From contig CABMCB010000100.1 of the NCBI GenBank assembly GCA_902384455.1, positions 1-45,030 on the forward strand: a stretch of 45,030 nt of DNA. Reading direction: 5' to 3'. The translations under genes and the position numbers were made by a program. Shown here piece by piece: positions 1,621-19,159 of the stretch (the first letter of the stretch is position 1; the number at the start of each line of letters is the position of its first letter). Origin of the DNA: an uncultured archaeon. GTDB taxonomy: Archaea; Altiarchaeota; Altiarchaeia; IMC4; SCGC-AAA252-I15. The notes below the pieces were generated by a model. The model was not told the DNA's origin. It saw only the letters and a program-made list of their open reading frames with translations, and made no database searches.

Positions 1621-1644
1621 GGGTATCTAGTATTCCACAGAATA

Positions 1645-2093: not shown

Positions 2094-2094
2094 G

Positions 2095-2463
2095 TTACTT
2101 CCAACCCTCGAAAGTGCAACCTTCTATGACAATGCGTTGGATTGTGAATAGTACTTGGTATTTACCGTCAAGGAAGTTGATATCTTTGACGCTAGCTTTT
2201 GCCCATTCAGTGTTTTCTGGCACTTGATACATTGGAGGACATGTTCCGGATTGCCAACGCATAGGCACACTTGAGCATATGAGATATTCGTCGATTAGAA
2301 CTTGGTGAATGGGGCCGGGGTCTAGTAGGTTGTGAATGTGTTCAAACGTTTTTTGATGGTTTTCTGTAATCTGTTCAAGAAGACCTTTTGCTCCTTTATT
2401 CCGTGGAATACGTGCGCACCATTCACGGTGTTTGCCATCTGTACTACCACAATTGCAGAACAT
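2095..2463 (-). CDS. Hypothetical protein with CxC...HxxWC motif
   Basis: 1-nt overlap with upstream ORF; a similar HxxWC motif occurs near the N-terminus of 36157-36972. Confidence 0.6.
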   Translation of the reverse strand: MFCNCGSTDGKHREWCARIPRNKGAKGLLEQITENHQKTFEHIHNLLDPGPIHQVLIDEYLICSSVPMRWQSGTCPPMYQVPENTEWAKASVKDINFLDGKYQVLFTIQRIVIEGCTFEGWK

Positions 2464-3158
2464 TAGAACGGGTCCTTACACTCTTTGCCATCCTGTAGGA
2501 ACATGAATGTGATATCTGTTCCGTCGTTGGCAACGTGAACGGCTCGACCTTGTTTCTGTGCAAGCCAGTTGTGTGTTTTGGCCATCATCTCTTGGAACAC
2601 TTGTTCACGCATTCCCTCATTGAATCCGCCTGGGTGTGCTAGTGCAAGCATTGTGTGCCCAAGGATTCGTTTGAATATGGGATGAATAGGAGAGTTGTCA
2701 ACCCCTGGTGGCATTGTAGCCCGTTTTGCAAGTTGTGTTCCAGTTATCTTTTTGGCGTCATCTCTCCAGGCATCCAATACACTTTTAGCTTTCTTTTTAG
2801 GCATCGGTTTATCTTTCTTCGTTTTGCGCCGCCGTTTTATCTCAGGTTCGTCGGCAATAGATGTTGTAGTGTCAATGACTACTGGTCGTGTGTCGAGAAT
2901 TTTTATCGTTCGAATGACCCGACCTTGTTCGTCTAGCTCCTGAATGACGCCAGCGTTCTTTCTGTGCTCAGGGTTACTGCATGCGAGCCAGTAGTAGGGC
3001 CATAGTTTGCCCTTGTCGTAGAACTGGCAGCGCGCTGTAACTGGTTCGTTACATCCTGGCATTGTTCCGATTAGACCGAACATTCCAGTGACTGGTGGAC
3101 ACCCTGGGAACTTGCGTACACCTGGGTAAATACCTACTGCACACTTTCCGGTCCACAT
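2463..3158 (-). CDS. Hypothetical protein (Cys-containing N-terminus, basic linker)
   Basis: 231-aa ORF with GAGGAG RBS. Confidence 0.7.
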   Translation of the reverse strand: MWTGKCAVGIYPGVRKFPGCPPVTGMFGLIGTMPGCNEPVTARCQFYDKGKLWPYYWLACSNPEHRKNAGVIQELDEQGRVIRTIKILDTRPVVIDTTTSIADEPEIKRRRKTKKDKPMPKKKAKSVLDAWRDDAKKITGTQLAKRATMPPGVDNSPIHPIFKRILGHTMLALAHPGGFNEGMREQVFQEMMAKTHNWLAQKQGRAVHVANDGTDITFMFLQDGKECKDPF

Positions 3159-3592
3159 GGCTCCTCTTTTGCTTGTACCCCGTATAGTACGATTAGGTCA
3201 AACTCCCCTTCAAACTCTATCTTCATAGCTTTCATAGGGGTTGCTGTAGCCATGTCGATTGGCCATATGTGGCGTGCGGTAAGCATTGTTGATAGAATGC
3301 CTAGTTTGAACCATTCCTCAATGACTGCTAGTTCAACAGGAGACTTTAGAAACGGACCTGGTATTCCAGGTGGCACTAGTTGTTCAATTGGTCCGATGCT
3401 AATCTGGTTTATGAATAGCATCTCGCGGAACCAAACAAGTATGTGTGAACATCTGAATGCCGCTGCTGGTGTGAATGATATGACGTTAGACCCTGGAGCG
3501 GGTTCTATCTTGTGTAGCACTTGTATCACTTTTGGTATTGGTGACATTGGCATTGGCATTCGTTTACTCCACTGTTCGTCATTTGGCGTCAT
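3134..3592 (-). CDS. Beta-rich protein, possible divergent paralog of the capsid candidate's C-terminal domain
   Basis: Pattern-level resemblance to the C-terminal ~125 aa of 21665-22525. Confidence 0.5.
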   Translation of the reverse strand: MTPNDEQWSKRMPMPMSPIPKVIQVLHKIEPAPGSNVISFTPAAAFRCSHILVWFREMLFINQISIGPIEQLVPPGIPGPFLKSPVELAVIEEWFKLGILSTMLTARHIWPIDMATATPMKAMKIEFEGEFDLIVLYGVQAKEEPCGPESVQ

Positions 3593-3824
3593 CTGTAAGC
3601 CTTTTGCACAATTCGTTGTATCGTTCTAACTGTTTTTGGAATCGACGTACGAATCGTATCTCTTGAGGTTTCAATTCTACTTTGATTCCACTTGTTGGTT
3701 CAAAGGATACACTGTAGTCTGGATATCGTTCGTCAATCTCTATCCAGGCTGCGCGTACTTGGGTGAATTGATTGATAGTCATGCTGGACACTTGTGGAAT
3801 GGGCCAGTGACTTTGACATGGCAA
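3579..3824 (-). CDS. Hypothetical protein
   Basis: Fits the gene run; start uncertain. Confidence 0.45.
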   Translation of the reverse strand: MPCQSHWPIPQVSSMTINQFTQVRAAWIEIDERYPDYSVSFEPTSGIKVELKPQEIRFVRRFQKQLERYNELCKRLTDDAK

Positions 3825-4051
3825 TGTGGACAGACGTTATTCCGTGGAATATCAATCCGATGTTTCTTTGCCAAGTCACTGAGATGTTTTCTATCCATGT
3901 TCGCTTCTTTGGCAGCTTGTGTGATGTTGCCATCGTTGCGCATGAGTAGTTGTAGGACGTATTCACGTTCGAATTCGAGAACCGCGTGCGACTTGTTCTG
4001 TCTATATGAGACTGCGAAGTCGAACACGTGTTTGACGTTTACATTGAGCAT
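3779..4051 (-). CDS. Stand-alone Fis-type HTH (like the C-terminal domain of sigma54 enhancer-binding proteins) with Zn-ribbon tail
   Basis: FEREYVLQLLMRNDGNITQAAKEANMDRKHLSDLAKKH; GGAGATACA-ATG start at 4051; ends CPHC...HKC. Confidence 0.8.
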   Translation of the reverse strand: MLNVNVKHVFDFAVSYRQNKSHAVLEFEREYVLQLLMRNDGNITQAAKEANMDRKHLSDLAKKHRIDIPRNNVCPHCHVKVTGPFHKCPA

Positions 4052-4363
4052 TGTATCTCCTAACTTAGTGCATGTTCTCTGGTGTGTATCCGTATCTCGC
4101 CGTCTGCTTGTTCGTGGCTCACACTTTCTACGGTTAGTGTGACGGTTGTCTTGTAGAGTGTCCACGGTCCGTTTTCTGATATGGTTGAACATTCTACGAA
4201 CGTAACGTCCCTGGGACCAATGGGTCCTCTATTGAACGTCATGATGTATGATTCGATGATATCCGCAAGTGAACAACTTCCACTTGTTTCACATTGCGCG
4301 ACTGAGTTTGGTTGACGGTAGGCTCGTATCCACATTGTATTCCGTCCGTCCCTTCGGGCGTTC

Positions 4364-4588
4364 TTAGGCGTCCGAATGTCGTTGCTTTGGTGTATCTATT
4401 CGCCCCGTTTTCTCGTGTCGTTCCTTTACTTTATCGAAGCATTCTTGTGAGCACACGATAGCTCCGATTGGCTTTACTCCAATGATGTAGAACCAACCTG
4501 CCGAATCGGGTTCGTCAGGCATTGGTTTTTCGCACACAATGCAGCATTCTGGCGCAATTTCGAGGCCGTCTATTATTGTATTCTTCAT
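4364..4588 (-). CDS. Small Zn-finger protein
   Basis: CIVC...CSQEC; its stop codon lies inside a box H copy. Confidence 0.65.
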   Translation of the reverse strand: MKNTIIDGLEIAPECCIVCEKPMPDEPDSAGWFYIIGVKPIGAIVCSQECFDKVKERHEKTGRIDTPKQRHSDA

Positions 4589-4592
4589 GGCA

Positions 4593-4883
4593 TCAGTTCT
4601 TTATGAGTATGTCGTCCCCTCGCCGTTGCGTTTTATGTTCTTTGATGAACTGTGGACATACTGGATTCTCATGGTAGAACTTATGATTCACGTTGTCAGT
4701 GTAGACAACCTTGCCGCAATGAGGACAGGCAGTCTTTACCCACGCAGGGTTAGGTGAGAAGATAGGTTCTTTGCCTGACGTGCTACCGTAGGTGAACCCG
4801 TGTTGAATCATGCCTTCATTGGCCTGATTGGTGTTGCAGGCTATGAGGAGCAGACTAGCTATGCTTAGCCACTTGTGAATCAT
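4593..4883 (-). CDS. Putative lipoprotein with Zn-finger-like C-terminus
   Basis: Signal peptide ending LLIAC; CPHC...H...C. Confidence 0.55.
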   Translation of the reverse strand: MIHKWLSIASLLLIACNTNQANEGMIQHGFTYGSTSGKEPIFSPNPAWVKTACPHCGKVVYTDNVNHKFYHENPVCPQFIKEHKTQRRGDDILIKN

Positions 4884-5511
4884 AGTATACCCTTAGTTTG
4901 CGAATCTCGTCACATTCTCGTTTTACTATATAGCGAACGGCGTCAACGAGTGGCGCAGATTCTCCACAAGTTCTACAGTTGATGAAAGCGACTCCGATAG
5001 GATTGAGGTGAATTGCATCACAATCGCCAAAGGCGTATTCATGGATATGTGTTGGCTTTAGTATCTCGTTTACTTCCGTTCGTATCTCGGTCAATTCCAT
5101 CTTTTTGAGTTGACTGGTAGGAACGATAAGCTTCCTGCAGTGGCAATGCAGGTTGGTGCAGTATCCTAACCTTGAGTGGAACTTTGCTGGATGTCCGCAT
5201 TCACAACGGATAATATTCTGTGGAATACCTAGGACTTGCGGTGTTGGGTCTTCTATTGACCCATCTTGGTGTCGTATAACAATATGGTATTGTTCTTCTG
5301 TTTTCCTCCCCTTCCACAGAAGTGTTTGCGTGACTGTGTCAAGTAATTGTGCGAGCCTTATCCACTCTTCTTGAACGTAGGGTGGCAGGTCTTTCCAGTT
5401 TCCGTTGAAGTCGTCAACGCATCCGTTGCGGAAGTGGACTTTCTTGATAGGAGACATTAGTCCCCTAACAACTTGAGCTTTCATACTCTTTACTGGGTAA
5501 TCATTATCCAT
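4855..5511 (-). CDS. Hypothetical protein with two Cys/His clusters
   Basis: 218 aa, GGAGG RBS, CECGH...H...C...CHC and CRTC. Confidence 0.7.
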   Translation of the reverse strand: MDNDYPVKSMKAQVVRGLMSPIKKVHFRNGCVDDFNGNWKDLPPYVQEEWIRLAQLLDTVTQTLLWKGRKTEEQYHIVIRHQDGSIEDPTPQVLGIPQNIIRCECGHPAKFHSRLGYCTNLHCHCRKLIVPTSQLKKMELTEIRTEVNEILKPTHIHEYAFGDCDAIHLNPIGVAFINCRTCGESAPLVDAVRYIVKRECDEIRKLRVYYDSQVAKHS

Positions 5512-5575
5512 ATCTATTCCTCCCGGTGTATCGTTATGAGTCTCGGAGTCGCACCGCGTTGCATGGTGATAGGGT

Positions 5576-5800
5576 TTAGGGCTTGTCTTTATCTGGTGTG
5601 TTATTTAGAAATTCGTGGTACTCGTCAGAAGTTAGAGGGACTAGATTGCCCATTACTTCATATATTACTTCTGCTAGGGGTATAGATTGGGCGTTACTTA
5701 GCTCGCGTAAGACCTTGGCGTGAATTCCAGTTAGTCTTATGTCAATTGAGGTTGTGCGGTCGATGAATTGTATCATGTCACCCTCGATTATTCCGTGCAC
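5576..5800 (-). CDS. Small protein, possible ribbon-helix-helix
   Basis: TSIDIRLTGIHAKVLRELSNAQSIPLAEVIYE pattern. Confidence 0.4.
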   Translation of the reverse strand: MHGIIEGDMIQFIDRTTSIDIRLTGIHAKVLRELSNAQSIPLAEVIYEVMGNLVPLTSDEYHEFLNNTPDKDKP

Positions 5801-5804
5801 CTCT

Positions 5805-6212
5805 TCAGGTGTTCCTAGGCGTCCGAATACGTTTCGAATATTCTTGTTGGTATTCGAATCCCTGGCGGTGCAAGTCTTCGAGTTTTGGGGCTAGCACTTC
5901 CCATGCTTGTTCATGTTTTTGGAACTGTGGTTGCATTGCAGCAATGCGACCGATGCACAACGCTAGGATTGCAGTAGCTTGTGTTGGCTCGAATCGACTT
6001 TGGAGGTCGAGTAGTAGCATCTCACAGGCGGCGTGTACGCGTTGCATTCCATGTATCATGATTGAAGTCCTCGAATTATGAGGGCGATTGCTACTATACC
6101 CCACATTATCGCTGAGCTCAGCCAAAGGTATGCTATGAGTTTCATAGTATCTTGTTCGCCTTTCGCCAATCCTCAAGTGGAACGAGTGAGCAACGAACTT
6201 CCATAGGGTCAA
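5805..6212 (-). CDS. Hypothetical protein (true start probably further downstream)
   Basis: ORF ends within a box H copy. Confidence 0.5.
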   Translation of the reverse strand: MTLWKFVAHSFHLRIGERRTRYYETHSIPLAELSDNVGYSSNRPHNSRTSIMIHGMQRVHAACEMLLLDLQSRFEPTQATAILALCIGRIAAMQPQFQKHEQAWEVLAPKLEDLHRQGFEYQQEYSKRIRTPRNT

Positions 6213-6498
6213 TATTGACCTTACCTTCGTCGTCGTAGGCTGTCATAGCGTCCGCATGTTCCCAATCTTCGTGATTGGGACATTCGTACCATTGCATCTT
6301 ATTGGGTGCAGTGGCGATGTGTGTTGCTGTAATACCACCGTGATTCTGTAAATGACAAGTGGTACATTGTGCAAACAGTGTAGTGTCAACGACTGCCATG
6401 ATTCTTTTCATCCTGTGGAGTACGCGGAAAGCGGGATGGTCCACAACAGGGGCAGAAGATGTATATGCAACCACGGTGTGTACTTTCGTCGGTTGCAT
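6142..6498 (-). CDS. Hypothetical protein
   Basis: CTTC...CPNH; start uncertain. Confidence 0.5.
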   Translation of the reverse strand: MQPTKVHTVVAYTSSAPVVDHPAFRVLHRMKRIMAVVDTTLFAQCTTCHLQNHGGITATHIATAPNKMQWYECPNHEDWEHADAMTAYDDEGKVNIDPMEVRCSLVPLEDWRKANKIL

Positions 6499-6649
6499 AC
6501 CATCCCTTTGGTAAGGCCTCGTGGATGACTAATTGTTCGCCATATCGAGTAGCGTTCTTGATTAGCTCAGTTGTACATCGACAGACGAAACATGAAACAC
6601 GTTCAGGTATAGGCATAGTTACCCCCGAGTATTCCGCGGAATACTGCAT
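6386..6649 (-). CDS. Small Zn-ribbon protein
   Basis: CFVC...CPCC. Confidence 0.5.
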   Translation of the reverse strand: MQYSAEYSGVTMPIPERVSCFVCRCTTELIKNATRYGEQLVIHEALPKGWYATDESTHRGCIYIFCPCCGPSRFPRTPQDEKNHGSR

Positions 6650-6870
6650 TGCTTACGCCGTTTGCGGCTGAGATGTTTATGCCCGTTGACGTGTTTGGAT
6701 AGAGGAATACCGGGTTCAGCAGGCTCTACCTTTTCAGGTTGTGGCGGCGCCTTTGGTTCAGGCGGCTTGATTGGTTCAGGCTCGGGCACACGGTAGTCAT
6801 TGTTGCATCCGACCCCTGTTAGTGCCGCCATGAGAAGTATTAGACGTCCCGTTCTGTGTGGAGGTATCAT
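6619..6870 (-). CDS. Putative Pro-rich lipoprotein
   Basis: Hydrophobic stretch ending LTGVGC, then PEPEP repeats. Confidence 0.55.
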   Translation of the reverse strand: MIPPHRTGRLILLMAALTGVGCNNDYRVPEPEPIKPPEPKAPPQPEKVEPAEPGIPLSKHVNGHKHLSRKRRKQCSIPRNTRG

Positions 6871-6873
6871 AAA

Positions 6874-7161
6874 CTAACCCCTACCCTTGAAGCAATCGCC
6901 CAACACTTCCCATAGTGAGTTGAACCGTTTGACTTGTTCGCCTTCACTCACTTGTTCGTGACTAGCTTGCTGTGTTTCCTCGCGGCTGATGTAACGTCTC
7001 ATGTGAACCTCGCCATTAGATGGCAGGCATTCAAGCTTGATATTGAATGAGCCGTCAGTGTTCATCATGCCGGTACCGATTCGTTTGAAGTAACATGTAC
7101 GGTTATGTTGGGTTACTTCGTAAGCAATCCAAACGTTATGCATGGCTATGAACACCCGCAT
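6874..7161 (-). CDS. Hypothetical protein resembling a small myxobacterial family (RIG...NxDGS.N..L..LP.NG)
   Basis: KRIGTGMMNTDGSFNIKLECLPSNGEVHMR; family resemblance recalled from memory, not searched. Confidence 0.5.
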   Translation of the reverse strand: MRVFIAMHNVWIAYEVTQHNRTCYFKRIGTGMMNTDGSFNIKLECLPSNGEVHMRRYISREETQQASHEQVSEGEQVKRFNSLWEVLGDCFKGRG

Positions 7162-7676
7162 TCACACTTTGAACACTGTTCATGGTTGCCAGCTATGCAG
7201 TTTTCACACAGTTGAAGACCACTGTGGTCTATCGCCATGTGTTCGTTTTGGTCTTCGTTCACCCCTTCTGGCACAATCGCTTGACGCACGAGGTTCGTTA
7301 GGTTCCTAGTGCCTTCTAGATAGGTCTTGAAGCACAGTAGGACGTCATTGAACATGCTGGTGGGTATTGTGGGCGTTCCTGCTAGTGTCTCAATGAGTGA
7401 ATCGATTGATGCAACGATGTCTTTGCGTGTCTCTAGTTCAGTAGTGAGCAGGGTCCACATTGCAGGTTCGGCAGTACGCTTCGTTTCAATCTGCTCTTGT
7501 AGTCTGCTAATGGCTTGGCCAGCGTCCCATTTACTGAACGGTACAGGCCAAGGTCCCTCGCGGGATACCTCTTGACCGAGTTTTTCTGCGAGGTCGCAGA
7601 ATATAGTTTTCTGTTTGTCGGTTGCAGGTTCGTCCATGAATCCGAATCCTTCAACGGGAAACTTCTCATGCTCCAT
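7146..7676 (-). CDS. Hypothetical protein
   Basis: PATDKQ...SKWDAGQAI motif typical of small phage domains; Cys-rich end. Confidence 0.65.
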   Translation of the reverse strand: MEHEKFPVEGFGFMDEPATDKQKTIFCDLAEKLGQEVSREGPWPVPFSKWDAGQAISRLQEQIETKRTAEPAMWTLLTTELETRKDIVASIDSLIETLAGTPTIPTSMFNDVLLCFKTYLEGTRNLTNLVRQAIVPEGVNEDQNEHMAIDHSGLQLCENCIAGNHEQCSKCECGCS

Positions 7677-7845
7677 GGTAGTTACCTGCCGGTGCTTGAG
7701 TTTGAGTGTTCGACCACTCCATGAGTTCCATGATTGAGGTTCCCCCGAGTGTGTGGCCAGGGTTGTTCACTATGAAGTCAGCCGTTAGTTCATCAAGAGC
7801 CTTGTGAAGCTTTTCATGTCTTTTGGCGTGTGCGTTAGTATCCAT
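7666..7845 (-). CDS. 59-aa hypothetical protein (not in ORF track)
   Basis: AAGGATAC RBS; MDTNAHAKRHEKLHKALDELTADF...; fills the gap between 7146-7676 and the NUDIX gene. Confidence 0.6.
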   Translation of the reverse strand: MDTNAHAKRHEKLHKALDELTADFIVNNPGHTLGGTSIMELMEWSNTQTQAPAGNYHGA

Positions 7846-7863
7846 TGTGTGTATCCTTGTGAG

Positions 7864-8328
7864 TTATTCCGTGGAATAGTATCCTTCGTGTATCGTAAAG
7901 TGTTTGACGTTTTCTAGTGCTTCAATGCGTCCTTTCGCCATTGGAATCAACCAATGTAGGTTTGGCATGACTGGAGGCATGGTTTCGCGGTAAGTGTTTA
8001 GTGGGTACCAGCCAACTGGTTCGTCAGGCTGACTTATTAGCTTATAGTCGGCAGACTGCGCAACTGCCGAAACATACCAGAACACTTCCCACGGTTTATC
8101 ATCGGTCTTTCCAATGAGTGTGGCAAAGCATCGCCAGTAGTCGATTCTTATTCCGGTTTCTTCGGCAAACTCACGAGACATTGCTTGTTCCGGGGTTTCA
8201 CCGGGTTCAATGTGTCCTCCAATGCCGTTGAGTTTGCCCTTTTGCCAATTGGGTCTAGCCTTGCGCACTAATAGAACCCTAGTGCGCAAGTCTGCAAACA
8301 AGAATCCCGCAACGTAGCGGGTCATCAA
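7864..8328 (-). CDS. NUDIX hydrolase
   Basis: Nudix box GGHIEPGETPEQAMSREFAEETG. Confidence 0.93.
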   Translation of the reverse strand: MMTRYVAGFLFADLRTRVLLVRKARPNWQKGKLNGIGGHIEPGETPEQAMSREFAEETGIRIDYWRCFATLIGKTDDKPWEVFWYVSAVAQSADYKLISQPDEPVGWYPLNTYRETMPPVMPNLHWLIPMAKGRIEALENVKHFTIHEGYYSTE

Positions 8329-8663
8329 TCGTCCCTATGTTGGCACGAATGAATAGCTAGATGACCGCAATCAGGGCACATTGCGGGAACACTGGGCGGC
8401 GCTCCTTTGATAGCGTCCGACAGGTCTTTGCACCCGTTCATGTAGTCGCGAACGGCTAGCAAGGTCTGCTCGACCGTTTGCACGAACATGTCTTGTGGTA
8501 TCTTGCATTCGATGATATCGTTGACGAGGATAATCAGCTCTTTTCGTGCCGATTCTTCGTCAATGAGTAACGCTTGTACAAGGTCCGTTGACTTTACCGT
8601 GTCGTCATCCTTCCCTTTGCTGCGTTGAGTGTCGGGCGCCTTTTCAAACTGTCGTTCTGCCAT
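8325..8663 (-). CDS. Hypothetical protein
   Basis: GAGGATACA-ATG start; C-terminal CPDC. Confidence 0.65.
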   Translation of the reverse strand: MAERQFEKAPDTQRSKGKDDDTVKSTDLVQALLIDEESARKELIILVNDIIECKIPQDMFVQTVEQTLLAVRDYMNGCKDLSDAIKGAPPSVPAMCPDCGHLAIHSCQHRDD

Positions 8664-8739
8664 TGTATCCTCGTTTCACCCCTTCGGGTGTTCCTAAATG
8701 TCCGGTATCAGTGGTTGTGAGTATTCCGCGGAATATAGC

Positions 8740-9015
8740 TTAGCGACGGCCAACGATAGGTTTCCACTCATGACTAGCAGTGTCGTAGTATATCTTACCT
8801 TCCATGAGTTGAATGACTAGTACACCTTCTTTGGCCGCTAAGTACAGACCTGCATTACTGACAGCACTTTCACACAGTAGACGTGAGTGTACGCGTGCTA
8901 GCACAAGGTTATCTTGGCTAAACGCGAGGCATATTTGCCGCATATGTTCAACGGCTATCTTTTCGTTACATTCTGCTGTGATATCTGCTGGAGTGTGAAG
9001 GGTAACTAGTGCCAT
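8740..9015 (-). CDS. Hypothetical protein
   Basis: GAGGATACC-ATG start. Confidence 0.65.
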   Translation of the reverse strand: MALVTLHTPADITAECNEKIAVEHMRQICLAFSQDNLVLARVHSRLLCESAVSNAGLYLAAKEGVLVIQLMEGKIYYDTASHEWKPIVGRR

Positions 9016-9121
9016 GGTATCCTCGCATTGGTATCTGGTATCCTGTTTGACTGTCCTAGTGGACGTATTCGGACGCTTAGGAACACCTGTAGGGGTGCGT
9101 GCGAATACGCCCTAACGACGG

Positions 9122-9508
9122 TCAAGCGGCTTTTGAGGCCACATTGGCCCAAGAGTTACCGAAGAATCGTTTGATTCGCGAACCGATACGCTTGACAGAC
9201 TTGTACATGCGTTCGGTTGGCTCGTCAGTTTCGCCTTGGTTGAATTCTTGAGCAAAGTCCCATAGCGTGCGTTCGCAGCTTTCTACGTCTGCTGCTAGGC
9301 ACTTGACGACAGTGGAAGCATTGGGTTCCGTGCCGGAGAGTACTGTGATGGTCAGTTTGACGGTCTTGTCGGCCTCGGTGCGGCTAAGTGTGACGCGCCA
9401 GGGACGTGAGGTCGGGGAGAAACCACAAGCGGGTGTAGCGGCCAGCTCAGTAGCCTTTACGCTAACCTTCATGCGTTTCAATGTCTTTTCTAATTCGGTT
9501 GCTGCCAT
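9122..9508 (-). CDS. Hypothetical protein
   Basis: AAGGATAG RBS; 128 aa. Confidence 0.7.
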   Translation of the reverse strand: MAATELEKTLKRMKVSVKATELAATPACGFSPTSRPWRVTLSRTEADKTVKLTITVLSGTEPNASTVVKCLAADVESCERTLWDFAQEFNQGETDEPTERMYKSVKRIGSRIKRFFGNSWANVASKAA

Positions 9509-9586: not shown

Positions 9587-10657
9587 TTAGTTCGCCGAGG
9601 GGTGGTCACTTTTGCGTTCAACACCCCTTGCCCCCTTGGTAACCTCTTTATCGAACGCTTCTTGTGCCGCGTCGCCTAGCTCAATGAGCCGTTCTTGGTT
9701 GTCATCCTTGCCGCAGTCGATAGGGTAACCCTTCTTCTTTGGCCCAATGACCCGGTTCCAGTCCAGTGAACCATTGTCCAATACGCCGGCTCGAACCATG
9801 CAACCCATTAGGGCCGCGGTTTCCTTGACGTTCTCCAGTATCTTGTCCTTCTCAGTTGGAGCCGCGTCACTGTCACCTTGTGCGGGTGCTGGCCTGACCA
9901 AACGGATGTAACGGGCCGTTATCTCCTCGGGAGTACTCTTTAGCTCGGCCAGGGCGCGCATTTCAGGCTCGGTCAATTCAGTCTTGCTTTCGCCGGCCTT
10001 GAGTTCAAACACGCCATCTTTCGTCTGGATGGCCGCAATGGGCTTGTTGTCGCGCCAATGCTCTAGAACTGGCAACGGCAGCCCGCCGACCTTGAGCAAC
10101 TTACTTACCCAACCTTGAGTAATGCCAAGTGCGTCCGCAATGCTGACTTGGTTCATGCCGCCAACAGTGGCTAATTCACGCGCAAGGAATACCATGTCTG
10201 GCGCCTTGAGGTCCTTACGTTGGACGTTCTCAATGCCGTTGAGAATACGGAATTCGATGATTGTCTTGACTTCCCTAACCTCGGCTAGGATTGTGCCGGG
10301 CGGAAGGTTTGGCACCTTTGCTTTCTTGGCATGTAGGTTAGATATTGCTCGGAAGCGCCGAAAGCCGACAACTACTTCGTACGGCTGGTCAACCTTCTTG
10401 CCGGACAATGACTTGCCGTTGGTATTCCGTAGAATAATGTTGGTTATCTGGCCATTAGTTCCAATGTTCGCTTGGAACCCCTCGAAACCGGCAGACTCCG
10501 TGTCGGCCATGTCCTCAATGTTTCGTTTAGACCGCGAATTGAGGTCATAGTCGGCATATATCTTGCTAAGGTCAACGGGTTGGCTGAGTGCGGTTGCTGC
10601 ATTCTGTTGTGTTGCTGACATAGGGGTAACTTTACCTTTCGATGTATGGCTTACCAT
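9587..10657 (-). CDS. ParB-family (ParB/Srx CTPase domain plus HTH) protein
   Basis: YEVVVGFRRFRA (GxRR motif), ENVQRKDL (ENxxRxDL), HTH MNQVSIADALGITQGWVSKLL. Confidence 0.88.
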   Translation of the reverse strand: MVSHTSKGKVTPMSATQQNAATALSQPVDLSKIYADYDLNSRSKRNIEDMADTESAGFEGFQANIGTNGQITNIILRNTNGKSLSGKKVDQPYEVVVGFRRFRAISNLHAKKAKVPNLPPGTILAEVREVKTIIEFRILNGIENVQRKDLKAPDMVFLARELATVGGMNQVSIADALGITQGWVSKLLKVGGLPLPVLEHWRDNKPIAAIQTKDGVFELKAGESKTELTEPEMRALAELKSTPEEITARYIRLVRPAPAQGDSDAAPTEKDKILENVKETAALMGCMVRAGVLDNGSLDWNRVIGPKKKGYPIDCGKDDNQERLIELGDAAQEAFDKEVTKGARGVERKSDHPSAN

Positions 10658-10690
10658 TGTGGCGTATCCTTATCTGCCACTTGATAGGAT

Positions 10691-10719
10691 AGTATCCCAT
10701 GAGTGGCGGTTACTGTCAA
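10691..10719 (-). promoter_or_regulatory. Sigma70-type promoter of the ParB-like gene
   Basis: TTGACA-17 bp-GATACT with extended TG; box P at 10747-10760 lies just upstream. Confidence 0.6.
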
Positions 10720-10745
10720 CTAAGTTAGACGTAGTAAAGTGAAGC

Positions 10746-11003
10746 TTATTCTATGGAATCTGAGTCGTCAAGTTGGCAAGCTTCAATAGCCTGCCTTTCG
10801 CTCGCATACGGGCCGTTTGCAGGTCCGTCGGGTAAACAACCCGGGAAACAAGGCCAATAGTACCAACCCGGTTCGTTTAGTTCATCCGATAGGTCGGGTC
10901 GTTCACGTGATAGCTTGGCCGTCCGTTCGTCAACGTAGAACACTTCCGCGTTAGGTAGTGCGTGCGGGTCGGCTGCCCTTGCGGGATTAGAGTGCAAGTA
11001 CAT
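10746..11003 (-). CDS. Hypothetical protein
   Basis: GWYYWPCFPGCLPDGPANGPY motif; stop codon overlaps box P. Confidence 0.7.
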   Translation of the reverse strand: MYLHSNPARAADPHALPNAEVFYVDERTAKLSRERPDLSDELNEPGWYYWPCFPGCLPDGPANGPYASERQAIEACQLDDSDSIE

Positions 11004-11153: not shown

Positions 11154-11621
11154 TCATCGATTGAAGCATCCTAGCTCGAATAGACTAACTGCCCTATCAG
11201 TACCGCGGGCCACAATAATGTGGTCTAAGAACGGCAGGCCGATACTGCGAGCGGCTTGTAGTAATGATTCCGTTAGGACTATATCTTCGGCCGAGGGTTT
11301 GGGGTCGCCGCTAGGGTGATTGTGTCCCACAATGAAGCCACTTGCACCGCTAACTAACGCGCTCCGTAGTATGTCCCTGGCCATTAGCGCGCAACCATGC
11401 TGCCCACCCTTGGCAGCTGTTTCGCTACCAATCAGCCGGTTTCGCCCGTCTAAGAACAGGATAACGAACAATTCAACCGGACTGTCTTTAGTTAGAAACT
11501 GAAGGGCCGCTTTAGCCTGTTCAAAGGATGACAGGTCGGCCGTTTCGGCTGGTAACTTGACGTATCCGTCCCGGACGAACCGGCAAGTGTAGGTAGGTAT
11601 CTTGTATGTAGGTGGCTTCAT
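11154..11621 (-). CDS. RadC-like JAB-domain protein
   Basis: E...LFLDGRNRLIG, HNHPSGDPKPSAED, LDHIIV; start uncertain (11621 or 11663). Confidence 0.92.
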   Translation of the reverse strand: MKPPTYKIPTYTCRFVRDGYVKLPAETADLSSFEQAKAALQFLTKDSPVELFVILFLDGRNRLIGSETAAKGGQHGCALMARDILRSALVSGASGFIVGHNHPSGDPKPSAEDIVLTESLLQAARSIGLPFLDHIIVARGTDRAVSLFELGCFNR

Positions 11622-11625
11622 TGGA

Positions 11626-11826
11626 TTATCGCTTATCGAAAGGGCAGCCCCAATTGAGTGCAACGCGGGGTAGTTGGCGGTCGGTTACCAGTGCGTCAAC
11701 CATGTTGTTCCAAGTTTCGGCTCGTAGGGGGTAGTCAGCACTACCCCCTTGCGCCCGTTCGGTTTCGCGTATCTTTGGCATAACATCTGACCGAAAGCAC
11801 TTAGTGAATTCTGCCTTATTCATCAT
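11626..11826 (-). CDS. Hypothetical protein
   Basis: Directly downstream of the repeated promoter-like element. Confidence 0.65.
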   Translation of the reverse strand: MMNKAEFTKCFRSDVMPKIRETERAQGGSADYPLRAETWNNMVDALVTDRQLPRVALNWGCPFDKR

Positions 11827-11885
11827 GGTTGTAACCTATTATACGCTTTAGACGGGCTAACCTTCCCTTTTATTCCGTGGAATAT

Positions 11886-12197
11886 TTAGCGGGGAGCGGT
11901 TTGACAATCGTAGGTGTCAAGTGGGAAGGTTCCGCCGCCAATACACCAGCAAGCCGGCGGCTTGCCGTTGCAGTCGTAGGCCTGACTAGTGTCGTCAAGG
12001 TAAAGTTGAAAGGTTGCCGTGCTAGTGGTCTTTACTCCGATGCTAGCCCGGTCCGTAGGGGTGCAAGTGGCCTGGCCAATGGTAACGGCAACCGGTTCGC
12101 TACCAGCGTCCACAGTGTCGGTTGAATCGGTTGGTTGAATCATAGGTCCGCAAGCTGACAAGCTAATGAGGGTTGCTAACATACATAGGGTTTTCAT
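11886..12197 (-). CDS. Putative lipoprotein
   Basis: MKTLCMLATLISLSAC lipobox. Confidence 0.6.
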   Translation of the reverse strand: MKTLCMLATLISLSACGPMIQPTDSTDTVDAGSEPVAVTIGQATCTPTDRASIGVKTTSTATFQLYLDDTSQAYDCNGKPPACWCIGGGTFPLDTYDCQTAPR

Positions 12198-13134: not shown

Positions 13135-13184
13135 GGGGTAACCTCTTATCCTGTTATACGCTTTAGACGGGCTAACCTTCCCTT

Positions 13185-13427
13185 TTATTCCGTGGAATGT
13201 TTGGCAATTAGTGCCAATATTAGGGGCTCGGCCAGTACTTTGGCGGCCGTTGCACGTTCGCCGGGTGTTCGCCCGCCAGTTTCGACTTCTACATGCATAC
13301 TGTAATTGCGTTCGTCTTCCGGCCGATAGACCGCGAACTTAGTTATACAGTTAGAGCCGTACTTCCGTTTGGCCTTTACACCGCCGTTGTAACGTTCAAT
13401 CGATAGTGTTTTGAGTTTGAGTGACAC
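13185..13427 (-). CDS. Hypothetical protein
   Basis: GAGG RBS; ends STE-stop within box P. Confidence 0.6.
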   Translation of the reverse strand: MSLKLKTLSIERYNGGVKAKRKYGSNCITKFAVYRPEDERNYSMHVEVETGGRTPGERATAAKVLAEPLILALIAKHSTE

Positions 13428-13520
13428 GATAAAAACCTCGTTTAGAGAGTGTTTGGTTCTTATTCGGGCGGCTAATCAGTCTTAGCCGGCCTCAAAGTCT
13501 CAAACTATTCTACGGAATAA

Positions 13521-14042: not shown

Positions 14043-14175
14043 GGTGTATCCTTTAGTGAGTGTTTGCCGTCTAGGTGCCGGTTAGTCCTACAGTCCGGGG
14101 GGCTGTAACCCATAATAAGGAAACTAAGGTCGGTTAGCTTGGCGCTACCATCCCCCTAGCTTGTCGCTAGGTGCT

Positions 14176-14232
14176 TGCTTCTATATACGGCCGGGTCCGG
14201 GGAAACTTTACCTTTTATTATTCCGTAGAATA
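14176..14232 (-). promoter_or_regulatory. Promoter-like element AAGTTT-N13-CGTATA with upstream box P
   Basis: Same architecture as 11839, 13154 and 14481. Confidence 0.5.
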
Positions 14233-14234
14233 AG

Positions 14235-14480
14235 TTAGGCTAGCCGACCCGGTATACTAGAAACCAACCCGCCGGTCAAACTAGGCTGGGGTATCATGGC
14301 CAGCTGGTCGGCAAACCTACGTAGCTGGTCGGCCTCTAGGTCGTTCAAGTTATGCTCGCTGATATACTGTTCAACAAGCTGGCCGGTTGTTGGCCGGTGC
14401 CTAGGTTGGCTTGTGACCGACACTAGGGTAGTTTGCCTACATATACGGTCAGCATGGGTTACTTTGAATTTCCGTTGCAT
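14235..14480 (-). CDS. Hypothetical protein
   Basis: ATG immediately after the promoter-like element (possibly leaderless). Confidence 0.5.
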   Translation of the reverse strand: MQRKFKVTHADRICRQTTLVSVTSQPRHRPTTGQLVEQYISEHNLNDLEADQLRRFADQLAMIPQPSLTGGLVSSIPGRLA

Positions 14481-14536
14481 GCTTCTATATACGACCAGCC
14501 TGGGCGAAACCTTACCCCCTTTTATTCCGTGGCATA
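14481..14536 (-). promoter_or_regulatory. Promoter-like element AGGTTT-N13-CGTATA with upstream box P
   Basis: Shares CGTATATAGAAGCA with the 14176 element. Confidence 0.5.
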
Positions 14537-14570
14537 AAGAACGGCTGGCTGGTTGAAGGTGGGAGGGTAT

Positions 14571-14681: not shown

Positions 14682-16925
14682 TTATTCTTCCCATGCGTCG
14701 CAGTCGGTCAAGTCTCCCCCGTCGGGCTGTTCACTTTCTTCTATCGACTGTTGTAACAGTATAAGCGCCTCGGGTGACAGTATGCCTTTATCGTAGGGTA
14801 GGCTTTCGAGGCCGTCTAACTTGCGTAGTGTGAGCCGTCCACCTTCCCCTATCTTAGCCTCACGTTTAGGCAATGGGCTGAACGTCATATCTATCGGTCT
14901 ACTTATCCAACGTCCGTAATTGTCGGAACGCTTATAGGTGAATGCGCCAGGTTTACCACTACGGGTTATGCTTGTTTTTATTCCACGGAATAGGCTAAGG
15001 TTCTGTATCTGAATCCCTGGTTGGCCATTCTCATAGGCCTCAATGATGGCTTTCCAGTTGTTCCAAACGGCAGCACGTCCTAAACCGCGCGCTCGTATTC
15101 GTTTGATGTCTTTATCCGTAGGATTCATTGGAAAGTAGATGCCAGGGCGCGCAAGAAACATCCCGTTAGGTACCGCTTTCTCTTCCCAACCTCCAAGCGG
15201 CTTGTTGACGAGCCATTGATTACCTTGCCTTTTGAATAATTCTGGCGATTCCGCAACGTCTTTAGGGTCTGGTTCGGGGCATATGAGCCAATTAGTTCCC
15301 GTGTCGAGCGGCTTTGGCAATGTTATCTTTTCAAGTGTCGCAATGCCATCAGTAGCGACCATAAGCAGATTGTCAAGGTCGCGGTGTGCAGCCATGGCTT
15401 CGAGCACTTGAGCACGGCATCCGCTAGTAATAAGGCCAGCCCACATCCAAGAATGGAAAGTACCAGGCTTTCCTCCGATAGTTTGCGCAGTTTTGCCATA
15501 GTTTGAATTCATTCCCAGCTTGATTACAATGCCAGGACCTTCTTTGCCAATCTGGATTCGAAGTGTATAGTACTTCGGAATATCTTTGAAGGGTTGGCAG
15601 TCACAATCACAGTGATAAAGCCAGGCTTCTTGAAAACACACATTGTCAAACAGTTTTTCACCAGCAAAATATTCTTCACGCCATACCCAACCACCCCCAC
15701 TACTTTCTGGAAAGGCAATGCTGCCATTACTCATTCGAAACGGAAAGGGCGCCCATGGTCGTTTGACTATGGGCTCATTGAGTGTGTAACGAACGATAGC
15801 TGTTCGCGCGTGGTGAATTGCCTGTCTGTCTGTTGTGTGTTCCCATCGACCGTGAATCAGACAGGGAAGGAAAGCTAGTTGGTAGACATAAGCAGAAGAG
15901 ATGTCTTGTCCAAAGACTATATCACGGATAGGTCCAATGCGACCTAGCTCAAAACGGCCGCCAAAGAATGCACACCGTTGAACATACTCTACATCTTCTG
16001 GGGTAGGATTATCAGCACGCGCTTTCTTGACATGCTCTTTGATGTTCATCACAAGCATCATTGCTTCAGCGCTAGAACCTGCGCCGAAGTAGTTCTTGAG
16101 CGGGATGCCCGCCTTTATATGAGCATCAGTGAGTTTGCGTGCAAGGGTGGCCATGTACTTGCACTCGTCAAAACAGTACTCTTCAATGTGTTCATCATCA
16201 AGTTGGTCAAAGTTTGACCGTTGGTCTTTCATCTCCTTCATGCGGTCGAGGACTACTTTGCGCTCATCCTTAGATACATCGTCAGGTACCTTCCAATCTT
16301 CGAGTGCAACAGTGAACTTACCTTGAAAGAACTTCCAAACATCATGAATGATTGTAGGTTGCCCCCATTTGTAACCCACAGTTGGACCGCCTGTGTTAGG
16401 GTCCACTACTATGTGTTTTCCTTCAATCTTCTTGATTGTGAATCGTCCGTTTATCCAATTGAGACAATACTGTGGGTTTGCACTAGGCCAGTAAACAGGT
16501 ACAATAACCTCTTGTTTGCCTTGCATGCGCCGTCGCAATTCAGGGCGGACTAACTTGTACAGCGTGGGGTCGTCAATGTCTTCTAGAATCTTCGTGAGGT
16601 CATAACCAAACGAGTATGAAAAGAGTTTAGTGTTATCTTTATGGGGTATTGACAGAATGAAGTCTAAACATTGTTTAGTGCGCAGCCCTTTTGGATTCTC
16701 TATCTTATACTTGCGACCAAACTCGTCGGCTGCACAGAGTAATGTGTACCTATGTTTCCCTGGCCAAGGGCCATGGTGTTCAGTTTTGCCTTCTCCGTCA
16801 ATGCCAACGAAGGTCGTAGAGAAGGCATCCTTGACTTTGATACGTGGGCCGCGGTGTGCATGGTGTGGAGCATTGCATTGTGTGCAGAACTGCTCATTGC
16901 CCTTGTACGCGTGTTGTATCTTCAT
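14682..16925 (-). CDS. polB: Family B DNA polymerase, probably protein-primed
   Basis: ExoI GIDGEG, ExoII YSFGYD, ExoIII YCFDE, FFGGRFE, motif A DISSAY, motif B KLGMNSNYGK, motif C ATDGI; the genome has ITRs. Confidence 0.9.
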   Translation of the reverse strand: MKIQHAYKGNEQFCTQCNAPHHAHRGPRIKVKDAFSTTFVGIDGEGKTEHHGPWPGKHRYTLLCAADEFGRKYKIENPKGLRTKQCLDFILSIPHKDNTKLFSYSFGYDLTKILEDIDDPTLYKLVRPELRRRMQGKQEVIVPVYWPSANPQYCLNWINGRFTIKKIEGKHIVVDPNTGGPTVGYKWGQPTIIHDVWKFFQGKFTVALEDWKVPDDVSKDERKVVLDRMKEMKDQRSNFDQLDDEHIEEYCFDECKYMATLARKLTDAHIKAGIPLKNYFGAGSSAEAMMLVMNIKEHVKKARADNPTPEDVEYVQRCAFFGGRFELGRIGPIRDIVFGQDISSAYVYQLAFLPCLIHGRWEHTTDRQAIHHARTAIVRYTLNEPIVKRPWAPFPFRMSNGSIAFPESSGGGWVWREEYFAGEKLFDNVCFQEAWLYHCDCDCQPFKDIPKYYTLRIQIGKEGPGIVIKLGMNSNYGKTAQTIGGKPGTFHSWMWAGLITSGCRAQVLEAMAAHRDLDNLLMVATDGIATLEKITLPKPLDTGTNWLICPEPDPKDVAESPELFKRQGNQWLVNKPLGGWEEKAVPNGMFLARPGIYFPMNPTDKDIKRIRARGLGRAAVWNNWKAIIEAYENGQPGIQIQNLSLFRGIKTSITRSGKPGAFTYKRSDNYGRWISRPIDMTFSPLPKREAKIGEGGRLTLRKLDGLESLPYDKGILSPEALILLQQSIEESEQPDGGDLTDCDAWEE

Positions 16926-17091
16926 CGTTACATTCCGTGGAATATCTTTTGAGTATCACTGAACGGCGAGTAGACAGAATAAGATAAAGGCGTTCCGCTT
17001 CTTTTACTCTAACTGGGCAATATCCGAAAGGTAGCACTATGATTGGCTTGCCATCAGGTGCTAACTTGGAGTCAAGATATAACTCTTTCAT
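16894..17091 (-). CDS. Hypothetical protein
   Basis: Short ORF upstream of polB. Confidence 0.4.
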   Translation of the reverse strand: MKELYLDSKLAPDGKPIIVLPFGYCPVRVKEAERLYLILSTRRSVILKRYSTECNDEDTTRVQGQ

Positions 17092-17611: not shown

Positions 17612-18376
17612 TCATGCAACCTCTGGACTGAAGTAGAGTGTATAGAGTTCGCGTGCAGTAGCGTCATATTCAGGGTCTTCTGCCATCTCTTCAATCATTT
17701 GGTCAATGTCTGATAGGTCTCGCGCAAGTGCTAGGCGGTCACGAATCAATTGACCCATACCAACGCCATGATGTTTATCAAACTTAGGTGTAGCCGTTGG
17801 TTCAGGTAATGGTCGGTCTTCTAACATTGCTACACGACGACTGTAGAAGTCAACTTGTATCTTGGCAAAGGCTTGGTCGGCAGCATCTTTGACCTTAGGA
17901 TAGTCTTCGGCACGGTCAGCAATGCCGCCCATAATGTGCATTCGCAACCCTGCAGGGATTGCATAAGCGCCGACCTCTTCACCTAGTCGTTTGAGTGAAC
18001 GTTCAGATATGGGCGGTTGTTCAATAATTGCACGTTGCCGCCGTGTTTCCCAACCTTTCTTAGCGGCCTGTGACCGTTTTTGACGTCGCGTCTTTGCTGA
18101 AACAGGTTTTGGAGCCTTTAGCGGCTTTATTCCACGGAATACCGGAGTAGCTTTAGCGGCTGCCTTTTTACGCTTAGCACGTTCAATGTCCGCCTTAGCG
18201 ACAGAAACTCGCTTACCGGTACGCTTGTCAATGGCATAGCGTCGGTCTAGCGAGTCTTTTCGGATAGTGTATCGTGTCGGAGAAGGCTTCTTCTTAGCCT
18301 TCACAGGCGCTGTCCGCGAGGTTTTTGGCTTCTTGCCCCCCTTGACAGTGCGCGACTTTTTTGCTATCCTACTCAT
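17612..18376 (-). CDS. Highly basic DNA-binding protein, candidate terminal protein
   Basis: K/R-rich N-terminal half, acidic C-terminus, in the polB operon; function inferred from position and size only. Confidence 0.5.
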   Translation of the reverse strand: MSRIAKKSRTVKGGKKPKTSRTAPVKAKKKPSPTRYTIRKDSLDRRYAIDKRTGKRVSVAKADIERAKRKKAAAKATPVFRGIKPLKAPKPVSAKTRRQKRSQAAKKGWETRRQRAIIEQPPISERSLKRLGEEVGAYAIPAGLRMHIMGGIADRAEDYPKVKDAADQAFAKIQVDFYSRRVAMLEDRPLPEPTATPKFDKHHGVGMGQLIRDRLALARDLSDIDQMIEEMAEDPEYDATARELYTLYFSPEVA

Positions 18377-18477: not shown

Positions 18478-19080
18478 CTACTCTTTCAGCTCAATGACAG
18501 GCTTGTCACTGACCCTCGCCTTGACCTCCCACATGTCACCGTTCTTCACAGTGACCTTGTTACCGGTCCAGTGTAGGATGATAAAGTGCCCCTTCTTTCC
18601 CTTGAGCGCATTGATTGCGCCCGACCCTGAAATGCCAATGCGGTTGCCAATCTCCACATCTTTGACGAAGTCTTTATTCTGTTCGTCACGTCCCGTATAT
18701 TTGGTTCCGGGAACAATACCTGTGGCTTCACAGGCAAACCAAAGACGTTCTTTTCCGCGATTGTCTTTCCACGGAATAATGTCGTGGAGAATGCCAACGA
18801 ACGTCGCAGTCATTGGAAACACTTCGCCAGTCTTCTTGTTGAGCCGAGGAACCATAAGGAACCCTTCGGGCCGTACGAAGTCTGGTGCAAGGTCAACCAG
18901 TTTGACGTTCTTTGGAACCATCCTCATGAGTTCTGCCATGAGGGCGGCATCGTCATCTTCACCTTCCCACTCGTCTGTCGCTTCTAGAGTGGGATTCTCT
19001 TGTGCGTTATCATCATCCGCATGAAAAGCAGCAGTTTCGGCGGCATTGGGGTCGTTGTCTTTATTCTTCTTTCCAGACAT
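18478..19080 (-). CDS. Beta-rich protein, candidate ssDNA-binding protein
   Basis: First gene of the replication operon; acidic N-terminus then beta-strand-like segments rich in aromatic and basic residues; GGATACCA-ATG start. Confidence 0.45.
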   Translation of the reverse strand: MSGKKNKDNDPNAAETAAFHADDDNAQENPTLEATDEWEGEDDDAALMAELMRMVPKNVKLVDLAPDFVRPEGFLMVPRLNKKTGEVFPMTATFVGILHDIIPWKDNRGKERLWFACEATGIVPGTKYTGRDEQNKDFVKDVEIGNRIGISGSGAINALKGKKGHFIILHWTGNKVTVKNGDMWEVKARVSDKPVIELKE

Positions 19081-19159
19081 TGGTATCCATTCTTTCTTTT
19101 TGCGGTTCATTCCGCGGAATGTGCACGGGGAGATAATCCTCCCCATTGTGCAGATTCCA

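Follow-up and report, generated by a model that had tools for sequence, protein, structure and literature searches.

The stretch of DNA analysed here, referred to as the window, is the complete 45,030-bp contig CABMCB010000100.1 (G000:C100) of a 2.41-Mb archaeal genome bin of 103 contigs, and this work concerns a ParB-like protein encoded on it and a short palindrome, box P, that recurs all along its length. Repeat analysis revealed terminal inverted repeats of about 80 bp at positions 6-80 (left) and 44955-45030 (right) that are 95-97% complementary. The genes are organised in two arms that face outward, with the change from the minus to the plus strand at about 19.2 kb. The open reading frame (ORF) at 14682-16925 on the minus strand encodes a family-B DNA polymerase of the protein-primed kind: Its score for PF03175 is 25.6 bits, just under the cut-off of 25.8, and it shares 25-30% identity with the polymerases of actinobacterial tectiviruses. 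The right arm encodes peptidoglycan-binding, CHAP, glycoside-hydrolase-like and subtilase domains, whereas no family is detectable for about 70 of the 87 ORFs called on the element. Because of the inverted-repeat ends, the type of polymerase and the right-arm domains, the contig is, as judged from its sequence, a linear, phage-like replicon, the kind of which could not be placed. The linear genome that had been assumed in an initial annotation of this DNA fits with the terminal repeats.

The parB-like gene (9587-10657, minus strand) encodes a protein of 356 amino acids that was analysed by ORF calling, Pfam, PHROGs, NCBIfam, alignment, AlphaFold2 (AF2) and Foldseek. The alignment places Box I at I33..N40-x-R42 (this assignment is our own reading of the alignment), Box II at G98-F-R-R101 and Box III at E143-N-x-x-R147, followed by a helix-turn-helix (HTH) at residues 166-194 with the recognition helix ITQGWVS and by a predicted C-terminal dimer domain at about residues 270-340. 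An alignment of 25 family members shows no variation at N40, R42, G98, E143, N144, R147 and the helix Q181-G-W-V-S185, and at least 90% of these relatives share F99, R100 and R101. When the profile of the 25 relatives was compared to the PDB, the best match was Noc (7ol9, 9e-6), with GFRRFRA aligned to GERRWRA, ENxxR to ENLQR, and the HTH aligned as well. PHROGs assigns the protein as ParB-like (3.9e-9), and its AF2 model, which has a mean predicted local distance difference test score (pLDDT) of 81.4, is matched by Foldseek with a probability of 1.0 to KorB (8qa9, the best match with an E value of 1.8e-8), Noc (7nfu and 7ol9), ParB with CTP analogues (7bnr and 6t1f) and Spo0J (1vz0). The Pfam matches are sub-threshold, with 16.9 bits for ParB_N PF02195 (cut-off 26.3) and 18.9 bits for KorB PF08535 (cut-off 22.3; matched by 5 of the 25 relatives at E≤0.01), and the NCBIfam scores are 40.7 bits for TIGR00180 (cut-off 58.45) and 31.9 bits for the Noc model TIGR04285 (cut-off 315). 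Taking sequence and predicted structure together, the protein belongs to the ParB/Noc/KorB superfamily as a divergent orphan, in agreement with the ParB motifs and the HTH that the initial annotation had recognised.

The absence of a ParA-type ATPase that the initial annotation had noted holds for the element but not for the bin: ParA is lacking among the 87 ORFs of the element, but the bin has two ParA/MinD-like genes, both on contig C51, to which all PF13614 (ParA) matches of the bin are confined. No ParB above the Pfam cut-off was found in the bin, which is 92% complete; the best candidate, on contig C25, reaches 20.4 bits. The motif by which such proteins bind ParA, (L|F|I)G[KR]G(L|F|I) as defined in the available text of PMC12704722, is present in none of the 25 family members.

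The ParB-fold domain has the features that mark the ParB/Srx superfamily, i. e. GxxR, ENxxR and the Box I arginine. According to the same source, the arginine of GxxR in the N domain is required for nucleotide binding, and the choice of the nucleotide by ParB-type proteins is not predictable from sequence (PMC12704722, in the part available). In the GFRR motif of the protein, the Glu of GERR is replaced by Phe (F99), and the Box I position of Q52 of Myxococcus xanthus ParB is an invariant Asn in our own reading of the alignment. R95 of the M. xanthus protein is retained as R101. As far as the accessible portion of the M. xanthus study shows (bioRxiv 10.1101/2021.05.05.442810), the loss of R95 abolishes CTP binding, and the replaced Glu, E93, is the likely general base, the loss of which permits loading, slows release and widens spreading. 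Since the catalytic Glu is a Phe here, clamps may be long-lived if they are formed.

The last ~90 ordered residues of the protein match no family. When residues 200-345 were modelled as two copies, the score was 0.57 as compared to 0.00 for the best control; this mark is reached by 20 of 30 solved pairs and by 1 of 23 single chains. The two-copy runs had a contact agreement of at least 72% and a partner pLDDT of at least 60, and the predicted interface is symmetric and located at residues 280-303 and 312-313. The modelling thus supports homodimerisation of a new C-terminal domain.

Box P, TATTCYRYRGAATA, is a 14-base palindrome, and mismatches were counted over its twelve fixed bases. There are 29 exact matches to TATTCYRYRGAATA on the element and none in 100 shuffles. 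With up to two mismatches, 42 sites were found (0-6 in ten shuffles), of which 36 have at most one mismatch and 16 are perfect, and the average spacing of about 1.1 kb bears out the earlier impression of one box about every kilobase. Box P is the sole high-copy dyad in the window. In the entire bin, 36 of the 38 boxes with at most one mismatch are located on the 45-kb contig, and the two in the remaining 2.37 Mb correspond to the level of the reversed-pattern control. Box P is thus specific for the element and a host regulon is therefore unlikely; a site for a host regulator was rejected for this bin. Among 267 boxes from 38 relatives (see below), a purine occupies position 7 in all but one (266) and a pyrimidine position 8 in all but four (263), and the central dinucleotide is AC or GT at a ratio of 114:90, i. 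e. there is no strand preference. A symmetric dyad of this type is the kind of double-stranded DNA site that is read by a dimer. Two other candidates were discarded: An oriented element was considered since the intergenic sites of the window mostly have AC on the sense strand, but this does not hold for the relatives, and a part of a sigma-70 promoter is incompatible with distances to the start codon that range from 0 to more than 40 nucleotides (nt) and with flanks that show no conservation. A -10-like hexamer follows 27-31 nt downstream at only four of the sites, all within two repeated modules. The parS sequence TGTTTCAC-GTGAAACA has one match at three mismatches in the window, a level reached by 23 of 100 shuffles, and for the Noc-binding site (NBS) TATTTCCC-GGGAAATA the window contains no match with up to three mismatches.

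The boxes, all identified by pattern scan and listed without a strand, are not placed at random: 22 of the 36 boxes with at most one mismatch are within 30 nt of a gene boundary, whereas 2000 random draws gave 5.4 on average and never more than 14, several more lie in longer non-coding stretches, and some occupy the entire gap between a stop and the next start. Perfect boxes are present just inside the left terminal repeat (95-108), at the stop of the NUDIX gene and 19 nt ahead of the next start (7865-7878), in intergenic regions (8722-8735 and 26478-26491), in front of a GGAG and an ATG (28952-28965), 7 nt (32249-32262) or 6 nt (42934-42947) ahead of a start, immediately past a stop (41843-41856), within the polymerase gene (14979-14992) and in another coding region (18128-18141), as well as at 2397-2410, 3838-3851, 6630-6643, 20892-20905 and 38005-38018. 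Boxes with one mismatch abut the stops of the ORFs 1645-1875 (minus strand; box at 1631-1644) and 19447-20388 (box at 20389-20402), directly precede the polymerase start (16931-16944), lie in stop-to-start gaps (27166-27179 and 33538-33551), fill a further such gap of 20 nt (29995-30008), and lie in an intergenic region (13506-13519), in a coding region (5214-5227), next to a hairpin element (36357-36370) and just inside the right terminal repeat (44928-44941); further ones are at 898-911, 19415-19428, 21617-21630, 23088-23101, 23952-23965 and 35377-35390. Sites with two mismatches were found at 337-350, 18765-18778, 19108-19121, 25790-25803 and 38881-38894. The outermost boxes, just internal to the terminal repeats, are separated from the left end by 94 nt and from the right end by 89 nt, and a box 86-95 nt from a contig end is also present in the related loci L009, L014 and L031, of which L014 and L031 have ends that resemble those of the window.

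Four boxes are part of duplicated intergenic modules of 59-62 nt. The 59-nt module (11832-11890 and 13147-13205) contains a perfect box (11871-11884) 27 nt upstream of TATAAT and, in its second copy, a box with one mismatch (13186-13199). The 62-nt module (14172-14233 and 14476-14537) has boxes with one mismatch in both copies (14219-14232, which is 31 nt upstream of TATATA, and 14523-14536). On the sense strand, the order is box P, an A/G-rich stretch and the TATAAT or TATATA 27-31 nt downstream, which gives the modules the appearance of duplicated promoter units, with the box at around position -46.

The parB-like gene itself is associated with two boxes, as had been noted in the initial annotation. 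One with a single mismatch (10423-10436) lies inside the gene, over the codons for I-I-L-R-N-T, and a degenerate one with two mismatches (10747-10760) is located 27 nt upstream of the promoter of the gene. This promoter, TTGACA-17-GATACT preceded by TG (10691-10719, minus strand), has 10 of 12 matches and ranks first or second among the sigma-70-like promoters on the minus strand of the left arm. For a comparison with relatives, a protein-anchored scan of metagenomes gave 43 loci, of which 38, with 47-78% identity, belong to the family. Box P with at most one mismatch is present in 35 of these 38 loci at 0.36-1.69 per kb, and the core ATTCYRYRGAAT in all 38. The co-occurrence of gene and repeat across relatives, proposed earlier as a check, was thus observed, with all loci having been found via the gene. 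The in-gene box is retained with up to two mismatches in 36 of the 38 loci. Upstream sequence is sufficient in 33 loci, and 21 of these have a second box in front of the promoter, at a distance of 262-346 nt from the in-gene one.

The in-gene box covers the invariant residues I-L-R-N-T, and its codons are nearly fixed: The preceding codon ends in T (xxT) in 37 of 38 genes, even where the residue varies between I, V and C, and is followed by ATT (38/38), CTA or CTG (38/38), CGG (36/38) and AAT (35/38). Elsewhere in the same 38 genes, ATT is used for 40% of Ile, CTA and CTG together for 40% of Leu, CGG for 16% of Arg and AAT for 28% of Asn; these counts come from related and therefore non-independent sequences. 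Since the synonymous positions are fixed while the wobble bases in the flanking codons vary, selection acts on the DNA of the in-gene box.

Three near-identical contigs of 2.9 kb (L043-L045) outside the family encode a homologue with 31% identity that has GFRR and ENTxR, and a different recognition helix (ISPGYANIL as compared to ITQGWVSKL). These contigs carry three copies of TTATTCCGGAATAA, a 12-bp sequence in which the half-sites of box P directly adjoin, the 2-bp centre being absent; the gene has one copy ahead of its start, downstream of a promoter-like sequence, and another immediately behind its stop. No other ORF of these contigs matches any ORF of the window by blastp. The apparent covariation of helix and box rests on this one clade. 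A comparison of the outer position 1 of the box (T or C) with the residues of the ParB-like proteins gave no clear residue-base pairing. As a separate observation, GGGGAGCGGGCGAA-like units are arrayed in tandem at about 2600-2700 of L043 (1-2912), and L044 and L045 carry them as well.

Several lines of evidence suggest that the ParB-like protein is the putative reader of box P, a reading to which we assign a probability of roughly 0.65: the co-occurrence of gene and box, the selection on the in-gene box, the elimination of other candidates, the habits of the protein family and the predicted dimer. As to the habits of the family, ParB and Noc read 16-bp palindromes, as described in the available text of PMC7383237. 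The NBS half-site TATTTCCC resembles the box P half TATTCCR, and the invariant Q181 aligns with the specificity position Q158 of Noc, which we take as a hint only. As to the elimination of other candidates, among 49 other ORFs of the element, Pfam detects no HTH or ribbon-helix-helix (RHH) family at E≤0.05, so the other HTH or RHH protein that the initial annotation had named as the alternative did not appear, and other hints of DNA binding are limited to an exonuclease with a zinc ribbon and a small zinc-finger protein. The assignment of the reader made in that annotation is therefore the best-supported one, and its support is circumstantial.

A number of observations weigh against this assignment. 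The protein scores below the curated cut-offs of PF02195, PF08535 and TIGR00180, and with a Phe in the place of the catalytic Glu the switch may never cycle. Since all 38 loci were found via the gene, the co-occurrence cannot single out the parB-like gene among the core genes, and the gene for a 128-aa protein directly downstream (9122-9508, minus strand; no family), which is adjacent in 32 loci, is just as conserved. In the relatives L035 and L036 (55-58% identity), the recognition helix is unchanged although core boxes are scarce (0.12 and 0.38 per kb) and the in-gene box has been lost, and L036 shows the outer variant C-ATTCYGCRGAAT-G. Moreover, the preference for gene boundaries would also fit with a role at the RNA level or in gene punctuation, and since most of the 87 ORFs have no detectable family, an undetected DNA-binding protein is possible.

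Such a protein is the basis of one alternative, in which box P is read by another family-less protein of the element, i. e. the 128-aa neighbour, the 76-aa product of the first gene of the right arm or the zinc-finger protein (Phage_zn_bind_8, encoded at 38000-38188), and the ParB-like protein acts otherwise, e. g. at the telomeres or by non-specific binding. The large number of ORFs without a family, the presence of the 128-aa gene beside the parB-like gene in 32 loci and the retention of the recognition helix in L035 and L036 while the boxes grow rare would be in line with this idea, and the 128-aa protein is also a candidate partner of the ParB-like protein. However, the 49 candidate ORFs gave no HTH or RHH signal, a search of the Protein Atlas with the 128-aa protein returned nothing usable, and there is no alternative repeated dyad that the ParB-like protein could bind. 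In addition, the 31%-identical homologue is found among box-like palindromes even though its gene context is different, and the selection acts on a box that is located within the parB-like gene. We therefore regard another reader as unlikely, albeit as an explanation to be kept in mind.

The positions of the boxes relative to genes raise the question of whether box P acts in the transcript or in displaced single-stranded DNA, as a small boundary hairpin for processing, termination or translational coupling rather than as a double-stranded operator. The 22 of 36 boxes close to a gene boundary, the many boxes 0-25 nt ahead of a start codon and the predominance of AC centres on the sense strand at the intergenic sites of the window can all be accommodated in this way. 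But as RNA, the box alone forms a stem of merely 5 bp with -2.3 to -2.8 kcal/mol, and this in four of six sites that were folded; the relatives show no strand polarity; and boxes are also present in coding regions, upstream of promoters and beside both telomeres. The stem positions 2, 3, 12 and 13 are invariant in 267 of 267 boxes, although a set chosen at up to one mismatch favours invariance. Taken together, a hairpin function seems very improbable. The ParB-like protein might also read box P for the purpose of inheritance, with the boxes as dispersed centromeres of a linear plasmid-prophage that engages the ParA of the host, a possibility raised in the initial annotation. SopB of phage N15 uses dispersed centromere sites, and the bin has two ParA/MinD-like genes and no ParB above the cut-off. 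However, the ParA-binding motif is absent from all 25 family members, no integrase, repressor or other lysogeny gene was detected among the ORFs of the element by Pfam or PHROGs, and forty centromeres far exceed what partition needs. Moreover, the assignment of the element to the bin is uncertain: The ParB-like protein occurs in one of 61 genomes of the phylum, which is the bin's own. Partition driven by a host ParA is thus not a likely purpose of the system, and we consider this explanation to be quite improbable.

If box P is read by the ParB-like protein, the following chain of events, closest to those of KorB and Noc, can be envisaged. The dimer, held together by the new C-terminal domain, would place its two HTH units on the two TATTCY half-sites of the box. 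Binding of a nucleotide at the N domain, in which GxxR and ENxxR are intact, would close the dimer into a clamp, and the closed clamp would leave the box and slide along the flanking DNA. Because of the Phe in place of the catalytic Glu and of the Asn in place of the Box I Gln, release would probably be slow. Loading sites would recur at intervals of about 1.1 kb, among them sites at most gene boundaries, one within the parB-like gene, one ahead of it and one some 90 nt from either telomere, so that the protein would occupy the whole genome. Control of gene expression, i. e. silencing, timing and autoregulation in a KorB-like manner, would be the likely purpose, given how densely the sites are spaced, how many of them border genes and that the parB-like gene has a box both inside and ahead of it. 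The boxes next to the telomeres hint at a further role there, and an organisation of the ends for protein-primed replication would also be possible. The CTP clamp that coats the genome, as envisaged in the initial annotation, is plausible with respect to the invariant GxxR arginine and ENxxR, but the nucleotide cannot be called and the general-base Glu is a Phe. For the chain as a whole, from the putative reader via the clamp to genome-wide control of expression, we see about an even chance. It is tempting to go one step further and to speculate that the ParB-like protein is the dedicated chromatin protein of an undescribed family of protein-primed linear phage-like elements of about 45 kb, in which slow or non-hydrolysing clamps from about 40 boxes, including both telomere-side ones, coat the genome, set the temporal programme of transcription and prepare the ends for priming by a terminal protein; we hold this to be rather improbable.

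The comparison with known systems helps to define what may be special about this one. KorB of plasmid RK2 resembles the protein in its ParB-fold N domain, its HTH and its C-terminal dimer domain (predicted in our case), and it also uses many palindromic sites spread over a mobile element of similar size, as compared to 36-42 boxes per 45 kb here. In the available text of PMC11790492, KorB is described as a sliding clamp in long-range gene silencing, and the title of a reference gives 12 sites on RK2. The differences are equally clear: The 12 OB operators stand against about 40 boxes of another sequence, PF08535 is matched below its cut-off and GERR is GFRR, and KorB has a peptide that interacts with IncC (ParA) as well as a KorA lock, whereas no ParA (87 ORFs) and no KorA-like HTH family (49 ORFs) were found here; a partner outside the known families may exist.

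Noc of Bacillus subtilis is, like the protein studied here, a ParB paralogue without a ParA that has many dispersed palindromes; in addition, it gave the best match to the family profile, its half-site resembles that of box P, and the Gln at the aligned specificity position is shared. In contrast, the NBS has 16 bp and box P 14 bp, the score for TIGR04285 is far below the cut-off, and Noc is chromosomal whereas the ParB-like protein is encoded on a mobile element. Noc carries an N-terminal amphipathic helix for membrane targeting; residues 1-22 of the ParB-like protein have a pLDDT below 50 and no helix in the AF2 model. The ParB-parS pair of the ParABS systems shares Boxes I-III, the HTH, the dimer (again predicted here) and a site in its own gene, as parS lies within spo0J. 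The element differs from these systems in that it has no parA, no ParA-binding motif in the protein, no parS beyond chance and a score below the TIGR00180 cut-off, and in that the two residues given as catalytic for M. xanthus ParB, E93 and Q52, are replaced by Phe and Asn.

Similarities can also be seen with two phage systems. The stoperators that are bound by gp71 of the cluster A mycobacteriophage L5 are dozens of short repressor sites in small intergenic gaps that bring about genome-wide silencing, and they share with box P the large number and the location in gene gaps along a phage genome. However, stoperators are asymmetric, dependent on orientation and read by a small HTH repressor, whereas box P is symmetric and without strand polarity and its candidate reader is of the ParB type. 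Protein p6 of phage phi29 coats the genome of a protein-primed linear phage and acts at the ends and on the transcription programme; it is small, histone-like and not site-specific, and has no relation in sequence or fold to the ParB-like protein. By analogy, and with the same reservation as for the chromatin protein proposed above, the protein would be a site-nucleated counterpart of p6 that is built on a chromosome-segregation fold.

ParB-type switches with functions beyond segregation, such as Noc, KorB, VirB and BisD, and orphan ParBs on mobile elements are already covered in the part of PMC12704722 that was available. Thus, each part is known, be it the ParB fold, the palindromic sites or the presence of orphan ParBs on mobile elements, and it is their combination that is new: a protein-primed linear genome with about one site per kb along its entire length, neither ParA nor a ParA motif, a new predicted dimer domain and replaced hydrolysis residues. 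In the literature on ParB-like proteins in phages with protein priming or inverted terminal repeats, no such element is described among the matches listed; the supplements of PMC12704722 may contain members of the family.

Relatives of the element were found only in metagenomes, where the protein search gave 80 clusters with 50-78% identity on contigs of up to 41 kb and the locus scan related contigs of up to 47.8 kb. Queries with the ParB-like protein and the polymerase against IMG/VR and the GTDB genomes gave no relatives, the sole match being a weak and partial one to the polymerase (L048), and polymerase-anchored scans of the same two collections for gene-independent relatives found none. 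A tblastn search with the ParB-like protein against 50,697 GenBank phage records gave no match, and a scan of IMG/VR for perfect boxes resulted in scattered single matches, with a second near-box in 5 and an array in none of 80 fetched loci.

The window has some further features. The stretch from the parB-like gene to the left terminus (1-9100) is poorly conserved, with most ORFs present in 0-9 of the related loci; it encodes the NUDIX protein, RadC is encoded nearby (11154-11663), and the stretch looks like a variable accessory or early region. In the right arm, a direct repeat of 300 nt with 79% identity (32259-32558 and 33554-33853) lies at the starts of two large neighbouring genes (32270-33535 and 33565-35052). 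Both genes have a box P in front of them and probably encode paralogous structural (tail-like) proteins.

Two more repeat families were observed. The second repeat consists of GGACGCYTAGGAAC followed by a GC-rich stem-loop of 5-6 bp and occurs in seven copies in both orientations (4338-4377, 5789-5829, 9066-9101, 36381-36409, 37515-37552, 40343-40383 and 41588-41623). Three copies sit exactly within a split box P (TATTC, 27 nt and an CACGGAATA-like part), and one more abuts the box at 36357. The loci of the relatives contain nearly none of these repeats (one match), which could be a small inserted element or a composite signal. An oriented motif, the hairpin TGGTYCNNCRACCA followed by YTCCTCAACGTC, is present in four copies in the right arm (29755-29790, 30016-30050, 36044-36080 and 37522-37558), and the hairpin alone has 5 matches as compared to a shuffle mean of 0.12. 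Related copies are found in L006, L007, L013 and L017. It could serve as a signal for late promoters or for processing, and its reader would differ from that of box P.

If our interpretation is correct, the element would be an extreme case of a ParB switch, with a loading site about every kb across an entire linear genome, and it would provide a natural test of a clamp that cannot easily open. It would also test the ParB fold as a genome-wide regulator of a virus. The short and sharply defined box together with a protein of 356 amino acids makes for an easy in vitro system, and the element, unusual in its own right and undetected in IMG/VR, the GenBank phage set and the GTDB genomes with the queries used, is yet represented by 80 protein clusters in metagenomes.

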